Below are positions 1,256-2,637 of a stretch of 28,882 bases of DNA, piece after piece. Under the pieces are notes generated by a model. The model was not told the DNA's origin and did no database searches. It worked only from the letters and a program-made list of their open reading frames with translations. This stretch comes from an uncultured Candidatus Bathyarchaeia archaeon (GTDB taxonomy: Archaea; Thermoproteota; Bathyarchaeia; RBG-16-48-13; JAGMEO01), in assembly GCA_964481305.1 (NCBI GenBank), contig CAYZTF010000001.1, forward strand, positions 3,575 through 32,456, given 5' to 3'. The stretch's first letter is position 1. The number at the start of each line of letters is the position of its first letter. Both the position numbers and the translations under genes were made by a program.

Positions 1256-1349
1256 AGCGGGGTGGGGTAGTCAGGCTTAACCCGCAGGGCTCATAAGCTA
1301 TCTCTGAGAGACCCTGAGATCGGTAGTTCAAATCTACTCCCCGCTACCA
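1256..1349 (+). tRNA. initiator tRNA-Met (CAT) with a 15-nt intron at 37/38 (1296-1310); CCA encoded
   Basis: AGCGGGG/CCCCGCT acceptor stem with A1:U72, three G-C pairs in the anticodon stem, TTCAAAT T-loop. BHB central helix CTCA/TGAG with 3-nt bulges. Confidence 0.95.
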
Positions 1350-1410
1350 ATATCCTAGATAACTACTTTCTCATAATCGAAGACCTAGGCCACAGGAACT
1401 TTCAAGAATT

Positions 1411-1418
1411 TTTAAATA
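1411..1418 (+). promoter_or_regulatory. TATA box of tRNA-Ile
   Basis: TTTAAATA ending 27 nt upstream of the mature 5' end. Confidence 0.6.
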
Positions 1419-1444
1419 AGCGACCTCTTCAATTACGATTGCTG

Positions 1445-1561
1445 GGGCCGGTAGCTCAGCTTGGTTAGAACTCCATGACCAAAGCGTTCGGCTGATAACC
1501 GAAATGGCTCTACAAAGAGCCACGGTATAGGTCGAGAGTCCAAATCTCTCCCGGCCCACCA
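1445..1561 (+). tRNA. tRNA-Ile (GAT) with two non-canonical introns: 22/23 (1469-1482) and 43/44 (1504-1528); CCA encoded
   Basis: GGGCCGG/CCGGCCC acceptor, TTCGG/CCGAA anticodon stem. Removing both inserts restores the D-stem GCTC/GAGC and variable loop AGGTC. The second intron has a perfect BHB (ACCG/CGGT plus TGGCTCT/AGAGCCA). Confidence 0.93.
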
Positions 1562-1960
1562 CAGATCTTTTCCTCTCACTGCTTGTATTCCTTTATTCTG
1601 ATGAGCCTATATATAGCCCCCCCACCCCCCATGCAAAAGAGAGGGGGTCACGGATCGTCAGCCTTATTCCCCGGCAACTTCAACCTCCTCTGACGTAGAA
1701 GCGCCTCAGGCCCTTAATCAAAACAGATTATCTTGCGCAAATCAGGAACAACGCGTGATGCCCTCTCACAATTTTGCCAAACACAAAAAAGAACGAGTGC
1801 AAAGATTTATGGGCGACAGCCCCCTTAATGGCAGCGTCTAGAACTTCTACCAGCCAACGATCTTCCAGTCTAATAGTTTTTGTCTGAGCGACGAACGATT
1901 CCAGACAGCTTTATGAATAAGTATAATTGCTGGAGAAGACAATAAAAATCCAAAGCAGTC

Positions 1961-2085
1961 GGGCCGGTAGTTCAGCTTGGTATGAATGGCAAACTTTAAG
2001 GCTGGGTTGCCAGTGTAAACGCCGCCTTCGCATACTGGATCGAAATAGGCGGAAGCCGCGGGTTCAAATCCCGCCCGGTCCACCA
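1961..2085 (+). tRNA. tRNA-Ala (CGC) with introns at 23/24 (1986-2018) and 37/38 (2033-2046); CCA encoded
   Basis: G3:U70 identity pair, CCGCC/GGCGG anticodon stem. BHB helices TTCG/CGAA (anticodon intron) and TGGCAA/TTGCCA (D-arm intron). Confidence 0.93.
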
Positions 2086-2164
2086 ACTGAAGTTACTTAG
2101 GATAGCGTTTATTTGATTAGACCAAAGTTGAATTCAAATCTTCCTTTCATGTTTAATCTCAAAG

Positions 2165-2170
2165 TTTAAG
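2165..2170 (+). promoter_or_regulatory. TATA box of tRNA-Leu
   Basis: AAAG-TTTAAG about 30 nt upstream of the mature 5' end. Confidence 0.5.
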
Positions 2171-2200
2171 AGGGCAACGATTCAACTTTTCAGCTTGGTC

Positions 2201-2340
2201 GCGAGGGTCGCCGAGCCAGGTCAAAGACGACTCAACAAGTCGTTGAAAGCGCTGGACTTAAGATCTATAGTAAGATTGGGCTCAGATACGATATCCAGCG
2301 GCGTAGGCCTTCGTGGGTTCGAATCCCACCCCTCGCACCA
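2201..2340 (+). tRNA. tRNA-Leu (TAA) with introns at 23/24 (2227-2248) and 37/38 (2263-2292); CCA encoded
   Basis: GCGAGGG/CCCTCGC acceptor, long variable arm GGC-GTAG-GCC, CTGGA/TCCAG anticodon stem. D-arm BHB TCAA/TTGA plus CGACT/AGTCG. Confidence 0.93.
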
Positions 2341-2392
2341 TTTTCCGCCATGATGAAATAGGAGAACCGAATCCAAACAAGTGGAACAAGTT

Positions 2393-2594
2393 TGGTGGGG
2401 CCGGAGAGATTTGAACTCTCGGCATTCGGGTCTCACCGCTCCAGAACCTCTTCATCCCACAGAGGTGGTCCGTACCCATGAATTATCATTCATGCTCTGG
2501 AGCCCGACCTTATGCTCGGAGACCACATCTCCGAGTGTCATACCTAGTTAGAGTCCGCCCATGAAAGCCATAGGCATTCACGGTCCACGGCCCC
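2393..2594 (-). tRNA. tRNA-Trp (CCA) with three introns: 10/11 (2553-2584, 32 nt), 25/26 (2509-2536, 28 nt), 37/38 (2432-2496, 65 nt); CCA encoded
   Basis: Spliced product GGGGCCGTGGTCTAACTAGGTATGACGTCGGGCTCCAGACCCGAATGCCGAGAGTTCAAATCTCTCCGGCCCCACCA folds as a canonical cloverleaf. Each insert is bounded by BHB-type motifs. Confidence 0.92.
2432..2496 (-). ncRNA. putative C/D-box guide RNA inside the tRNA-Trp anticodon intron (guide for Cm34)
   Basis: C'-like GATGAAGA, then guide TCTGGAGC (complement of G31-A38), then D-like GTGA. The N+5 rule lands on C34. Confidence 0.7.
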
Positions 2595-2629
2595 AACCGG
2601 CCCCGATCAGATTACAGAGATGGCCATTT

Positions 2630-2637
2630 TTATTAAA
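2630..2637 (-). promoter_or_regulatory. TATA box of tRNA-Trp
   Basis: TTTAATAA on the minus strand, predicting a start near 2606 and a leader of about 12 nt. Confidence 0.5.

Follow-up and report, generated by a model that had tools for sequence, protein, structure and literature searches.

Transfer RNAs with multiple introns are known in Thermoproteales, ARMAN and Asgard archaea (PMC4090602, PMC4033280, preprint 10.64898/2026.10.13.758758). In split tRNAs, complementary leader or trailer sequence outside the mature tRNA assembles a splicing-competent precursor and holds the exons together (PMC4090602, PMC4033280). Pairing by sequence outside the mature tRNA is thus a feature that the tRNA-Trp gene described here shares with the trans-spliced split tRNAs of Nanoarchaeum equitans and Caldivirga maquilingensis and with permuted tRNAs. 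However, the leader and trailer of split tRNAs pair mutually and form the splice motif, whereas the present gene is contiguous and its leader pairs with mature positions 65/66-72, outside the motif. The locus also resembles the non-canonical archaeal bulge-helix-bulge introns, in which four exon bases before the 5' bulge pair with intron bases before the 3' bulge, the bulges are 3 nt long and the precursor does not fold as a cloverleaf. It differs in that the described motif is formed by exon and intron alone, while here the leader takes the displaced partner strand. We found no description of a leader that mimics the acceptor strand in the full-text literature searched (subscription journals lay outside it), including PMC4090602, PMC4033280, the Cyanidioschyzon paper and the 2026 Asgard intron census, in agreement with the first-pass annotation of this DNA, which knew of no such cis-chaperone. 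Archaeal non-canonical tRNA splicing is known, but a cis helper in the leader, as proposed here, is undescribed within the searched literature.

The window (the whole stretch of DNA analysed, 28,882 nt) comes from a 647-kb Candidatus Bathyarchaeia MAG that is 82% complete. Its tRNA-Trp(CCA) gene lies on the minus strand, with +1 at 2594, an encoded CCA ending at 2393 and three introns, at 10/11, 25/26 and 37/38 (Table 1). Together with the leader copy, the gene is contiguous from 2604 to 2393. The 5' end of the tRNA reads GGGGCCG UGG and then the intron; the 3' end reads CUCUC-CGGCCCC-A-CCA. Removal of the three introns yields a 77-nt sequence that ARAGORN calls as tRNA-Trp(cca). When run on the whole window, ARAGORN called no tRNA and missed the raw gene. 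Rfam gave no tRNA match at the locus at gathering score, only a sub-threshold partial match of 18.4 bits, because the three introns interrupt the gene. Five interrupted tRNA genes (window positions 1256-2594 and 2704-2829) are clustered here beside a 5S rRNA gene of divergent orientation; of these five tRNAs, Rfam detects three and ARAGORN none.

Table 1. Features of the tRNA-Trp(CCA) gene and its leader, in window coordinates
Feature	Positions	Strand	Remarks
TATA-like box TTTAATAA, tRNA-Trp promoter	2630..2637	-	3' end 25 nt upstream of leader copy
Leader copy GGGGCCGG of the 5' acceptor strand	2597..2604	-	Complement of C65-C72; predicted 5' end of primary transcript
Spacer TT, leader copy to tRNA +1	2595..2596	-	
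Exon 1, tRNA positions 1-10, GGGGCCGUGG	2585..2594	-	C5-U8 (2590-2587), predicted 5' strand of central splice-motif helix
Intron 1, 10/11, 32 nt; hairpin CCGUGAAUGCC/GGCUUUCAUGG	2553..2584	-	GCGG at 2558-2555 pairs C5-U8
Exon 2, positions 11-25, D arm	2537..2552	-	
Intron 2, 25/26, 28 nt, canonical bulge-helix-bulge	2509..2536	-	Central UAUG/CAUA, outer hairpin CUCGGAGA/UCUCCGAG
Exon 3, positions 26-37, anticodon CCA	2497..2508	-	
Intron 3, 37/38, 65 nt, C/D-box-like elements	2432..2496	-	Guide UCUGGAG faces C32-G37
Exon 4, positions 38-76, encoded CCA	2393..2431	-	C65-C72 (2404-2397), CCGGCCCC

The 37/38 intron (2432-2496, minus strand) contains C'/D-like boxes, GAUGAAGA and GUGA, which most Trp relatives share. 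Counted from the D-like box, the fifth base of the guide faces C34, and a second guide, GGGU before CGGA/CUGA, faces A38-C41. These boxes and the guide facing C34 recall the C/D-box guide intron of archaeal pre-tRNA-Trp (Haloferax type), but the likeness is confined to intron 3 and does not bear on the leader copy.

Marck and Grosjean reportedly defined the bulge-helix-bulge motifs in 2003. The 25/26 intron of tRNA-Trp is an exact textbook case, with bulges AC↓A and AG↓G (arrows mark cuts) and an outer hairpin of 8 bp; its geometry agrees with those Marck-Grosjean definitions that are quoted in the preprint 10.64898/2026.10.13.758758, and it was used to set the geometry of the 10/11 motif. Read in this way, intron 1 (2584-2553) lies between G10 and U11, ends in GCGG-AC, and pairs its GCGG (intron positions -3 to -6) with C5 C6 G7 U8 in the central helix. 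The sequence reading gives two 3-nt bulges, G9 G10↓A and A C↓U11, each cut after the second base. On the intron side, the helix is strong, with one mismatch in 11 positions, and the exon-side helix consists only of G4:C12 and G3-U13 in Trp and of 1 bp in Gln. The predicted 10/11 motif is a relaxed form of the bulge-helix-bulge, with an outer exon helix of only 1-2 bp. The pairing of C5-U8 with the intron GCGG that this motif needs would exclude the normal acceptor stem.

The exon boundaries agree with the spliced sequences, which ARAGORN calls as cloverleaf tRNAs, tRNA-Trp(cca) and tRNA-Gln(ttg). Intronless Trp orthologues read UGG-UCUAGC uninterrupted across the 10/11 junction, and Gln orthologues likewise read through. 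The 3' end of intron 1, GGGCGGAC, is kept in Trp relatives with the 10/11 intron, although this end was part of the metagenome search pattern, which bears on its conservation among the loci so found. For the splicing endonuclease, we detected two PF01974 paralogs, one on contig C45 and one on C2, with open frames 206 and 210 aa in length. These would be consistent with a broad-specificity enzyme with a putative two-subunit arrangement, as a relaxed motif needs.

The 8-nt leader copy is the exact complement of C65-C72, a strand that would be contested between the copy and the true 5' strand. The first-pass annotation had pointed out the tandem GGGGCCG, the TATA box and the complementarity of the leader octamer to C65-C72, and all of these sequence statements hold on the minus strand. 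Its argument that the 10/11 motif needs C5-U8 with the intron, and is thereby incompatible with the acceptor stem, fits the placement of GCGG. It had also counted 8 bp for the leader pairing against 7 bp for the true stem. An eighth pair (G with C65) does exist in this gene, but it is not general, as this leader base is A in 2/13 Trp and 13/34 Gln leaders. Three other readings of the repeat were considered and rejected. The upstream copy is not the real 5' end of the tRNA, as U8-R9-G10 follow the downstream copy only and the spacer length varies. Nor is the copy part of the splice motif, whose central helix must sit directly 5' of the G10↓A cut. An att integration-site duplication does not apply to a tandem repeat of 7-8 nt that flanks no element.

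Archaeal TATA boxes usually end about 22-23 nt before the transcription start. Measured from the 3' end of the TATA-like octamer, the distance to the first base of the copy is 21-27 nt in about 50 intron-bearing genes, whereas intronless genes have 27-36 nt between the octamer and tRNA +1. The base preceding the copy (position -1) is a pyrimidine in all 13 Trp and in 30 of the 34 Gln leaders, and position +1 is a purine in all of them, a predicted signal that is the usual initiator step. Together, the TATA spacing and the pyrimidine/purine step suggest that the primary transcript most likely starts at the first base of this sequence.

Intron-bearing genes were collected by patterns that excluded the leader. 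In each gene so collected that has a 10/11 intron, all seven leader-copy positions (7/7) can pair with the 3' acceptor strand, and the copy lies 2-13 nt upstream of +1. The distinct intron-bearing leaders number 47 (13 tRNA-Trp and 34 tRNA-Gln) from about 12 Bathyarchaeia families. Specifically, both same-family relatives that have the Trp gene show the 10/11 intron and the leader GGGGCCGG (spacer ATA or TT), and a metagenome scan for Trp, with a pattern built from the intron 3' end and the D loop only, returned 17 loci, all with the leader copy. Trp spacers in relatives read ATA, ATT, TTAAC, AAGTT or AAGCTAA, the last two in a deep AT-rich lineage among the 17 loci with an intron of 15-16 nt. 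None of the 18 intronless Trp genes from other families has more than 5/7 leader bases pairing with the 3' strand, even where the acceptor is GGGGCCG. In the whole genome, one other tandem 5' acceptor strand was found among about 19 tRNA-like genes, and, apart from tRNA-Trp, the gene it belongs to is alone in having a 10/11 intron. No leader copy precedes the remaining tRNA genes (roughly 17), some of which have introns at other positions.

In three metagenome contigs of the AT-rich lineage (L165, L167, L168), a single tRNA-Trp gene contains one 14-16-nt intron sequence at two sites, the 10/11 junction and the variable region, and both insertions follow the exon bases CCGUAG. The pattern suggests an intron copied to a site that would offer the same central helix.

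The layout recurs in a tRNA of different sequence. A tRNA-Gln(UUG) gene on contig C51 (L175:215-400, minus strand) has introns at 10/11 and about 24/25 and reads AGCCCGGG-AA-AGCCCGG-UGG, followed by a 21-nt intron ending in GCCGAG and then UGUAGCGG. Its central helix would be CGGU:GCCG, compared with CCGU:GCGG in tRNA-Trp, so that the leader copy and the intron pairing segment have both changed to match tRNA-Gln. Judged from its sequence, tRNA-Gln is an independent replicate of the tRNA-Trp layout with a different acceptor. A class-wide pattern search that left out the leader showed that 34 of 401 genomes have a 10/11 intron in tRNA-Gln, and the Gln loci fetched all have a 7/7 copy 2-13 nt upstream of +1 (30/30, about 12 families). 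The same-family genome G003 has a Trp gene with intron and copy and a Gln gene without either. Outside one genus, the intronless Gln genes (about 19) have no leader copy. In the tRNA-Gln leaders of family f27 (L207-L213), the copy is extended to GGCCCGGGG, which could pair 9 bases deep and thereby open the last two T-stem pairs.

A leader copy possibly also occurs in a third tRNA species, tRNA-Met(CAU), on the plus strand of L020 (about 2085-2245) in G008, a relative that belongs to a different family. This gene has three introns, located after U8, within the D arm and at 31/32. The first of these is 18 nt long and would form 3/4 pairs in the central helix, with an 8/9 boundary that is not certain. 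The putative Met copy, GCCGAGG, would pair with the 3' strand CCUCGGC without mismatch or wobble; the true strand, GCCGGGG, includes a G-U pair with it. This case too would accord with selection on pairing.

To model the competition between leader and acceptor strand, we folded 23 distinct precursors, 15 of them Trp, with ViennaRNA at 37 C. With the leader, the central-helix probability was 0.67 and that of the native acceptor stem 0.006; without it, the values were 0.017 and 0.94. The pairing probability of the leader with the 3' strand was 0.98, and results were similar at 60 C. Central-helix probability was 0.09 when the copy was replaced by AAUAAUA and 0.36 when it was shuffled; shuffled copies keep about half the effect because they are G-rich and still pair with the C-rich 3' strand. 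Forcing the strict motif cost 5.4 kcal/mol with the leader vs. 7.7 without, and it was cheaper with the leader in 23/23 loci, although the leader lowered this cost by only about 2.3 kcal/mol on average. The central helix was not formed in the model for 6/15 Trp precursors even when the leader was present. After removal of all introns, the leader-paired state was still 2-4 kcal/mol more stable in the model, so restoring the true acceptor stem must depend on tertiary folding or on a nuclease. When the L175 tRNA-Gln precursor is modelled, its released 5' strand AAAGCCCG can pair with the anticodon stem-loop CGGGCUUU of the same tRNA, and this pairing, probably a modelling artefact, dominates the fold of the spliced form.

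These results bear on the central proposal of the first-pass annotation, that the leader sequesters the 3' strand so that the splice motif can form. The suggested folding of the precursor with and without the leader gave an exchange of the acceptor stem for the splice-motif helix only when the leader was present. The suggested survey of relatives found the duplication together with the 10/11 intron in all 47 distinct leaders and no intron-bearing relative without a copy, and the promoter geometry supports the placement of the copy in the transcript. Co-occurrence, the tRNA-Gln replicate and the fold models thus favour the proposed sequestration.

We consider it likely that selection maintains the leader copy as a cis element that stands in for the 5' acceptor strand and would enable splicing at 10/11 as proposed. 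Transcription would start at the copy or within a few bases of it. Within the primary transcript, C66-C72 of the 3' acceptor strand (in this gene C65 as well) would be taken up by the copy. This would release the true 5' strand, so that C5-U8 and the intron GCGG could build the central helix of 4 bp and place both cut sites, G10↓A and C↓U11, in 3-nt bulges that a broad-specificity splicing endonuclease could cleave. As a second role, the leader helix would act as a tether for the 10-nt 5' exon from cleavage to ligation, comparable to the complementary leaders of split tRNA halves (PMC4090602, PMC4033280); without this helix, the exon would be held only by 4 bp to the excised intron. Once ligation has removed the central helix, the true strand could retake the 3' strand and the leader could be removed. 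The sequences with their complementarity, co-occurrence and conservation and the model energies are observed here; that the strands pair in vivo, that this affects cleavage and ligation, and when the 5' end matures are deduced from them. The coupling of splicing to RNase P processing, which had also been put forward, is speculation; the RNase P RNA (RF00373) was not found in this 82% complete genome, which is uninformative either way.

Mutually exclusive helices also govern attenuators and the expression platforms of riboswitches. By analogy only, C66-C72 may be compared with such RNA switches as a strand with two alternative partners that would decide the downstream structure. The difference is that no ligand or ribosome trigger is evident here and the reset would be the irreversible excision of the intron.

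The repeat is short, and a chance match in G+C-rich sequence might be suspected on that ground. Its recurrence in every intron-bearing relative and in a second tRNA of different sequence refutes this, and a tandem copy occurs in 0/14 tRNA-like genes at unrelated control loci, which came from a loose-pattern scan that returned mostly chance bacterial matches. The Trp leader copy exceeds chance, and we give coincidence practically no credence. The copy could also be a functionless scar, left by a tandem duplication at intron gain or retained as a partial self-duplication. The copy and spacer in the window do resemble a 10-nt tandem repeat, and decayed copies do occur in one genus. However, a scar would be expected to diverge at the rate of its flanks. 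Instead, the copy tracks its tRNA (GGGGCCG for Trp; AGCCCGG or GGCCCGG for Gln) and pairs 7/7 in all 47 distinct leaders of about 12 families, while the spacer (2-13 nt) and the upstream bases vary freely. The Trp copy is conserved at 7/7 positions in 13 distinct leaders. Positions 2-7 of the Gln copy are 100% conserved in 34, compared with only 32-53% agreement over the ten bases upstream and a spacer variable in length and sequence. The sole substitution among intron-bearing leaders, A (20) or G (14) at Gln position 1, pairs with U72 in either form, and decay is confined to intronless genes. These comparisons cover two or three tRNA species in related genomes that are not independent, and within each tRNA family there is no covariation because the acceptor sequence is invariant within each tRNA. 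We regard a neutral scar as very improbable; the pattern of conservation points to a selected cis element.

A more serious competitor holds that the copy serves some role other than formation of the splice motif, its link to the 10/11 intron being indirect or inherited. It might mask the 3' end or acceptor stem of the unspliced precursor against RNase P, CCA repair and charging, as a form of quality control or ordering, or it might simply be a favourable sequence for transcription start. The copy does lie exactly at the predicted start, and the leader-paired state is predicted to persist after splicing. Evidence for such a role also comes from genus g24 (family f15; L238-L247), whose compact intronless tRNA-Gln genes have leader copies in every state of preservation, intact in 3-4 of the 10 loci. 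One copy type is identical (AGCCCGG), some still pair 7/7 (GGCCCGG, twice, and AGCUUGG), others have one mismatch (AGCCCGA, AGCCGGG, CGCCCGG), and some of the genes have no recognisable copy. The intact copies indicate that the sequence is tolerated, and perhaps useful, without an intron, so a splicing-independent role is conceivable. Nonetheless, the range from perfect to gone is what decay predicts, and the g24 copies are probably relics of intron loss. No other intronless Trp or Gln gene examined has the copy, nor do the roughly 17 other tRNA genes of this genome; it is found only where the intron needs positions 5-8 (3-6 in Met). On balance, we consider a different role unlikely, and prefer a stand-in strand that helps splicing at 10/11.

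How acceptor and D-arm introns are presented to the endonuclease has so far been left at the statement that the precursor "folds differently", to which a stand-in strand would be a concrete and testable answer. Such a strand would be a built-in folding helper for a disfavoured splice motif and would set the order of processing steps. It would likely prevent loss of the 10-nt exon and would also explain the persistence of such introns. For annotation, a tandem acceptor strand at the transcription start may serve as a signature of tRNA genes that are missed by ARAGORN and by Rfam at gathering score. The leader copy may also offer a minimal natural RNA switch that is reset by processing. Whether a general archaeal rule lies behind these genes is, in our judgement, evenly balanced: every intron whose splice motif draws on the 5' acceptor strand (roughly positions 3-8) would depend on a stand-in at the 5' end of the transcript, which pairs with the 3' strand, tethers the first exon and forces splicing before 5' maturation. 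If true, the rule would hold across Bathyarchaeia and would predict hidden introns and transcription starts.
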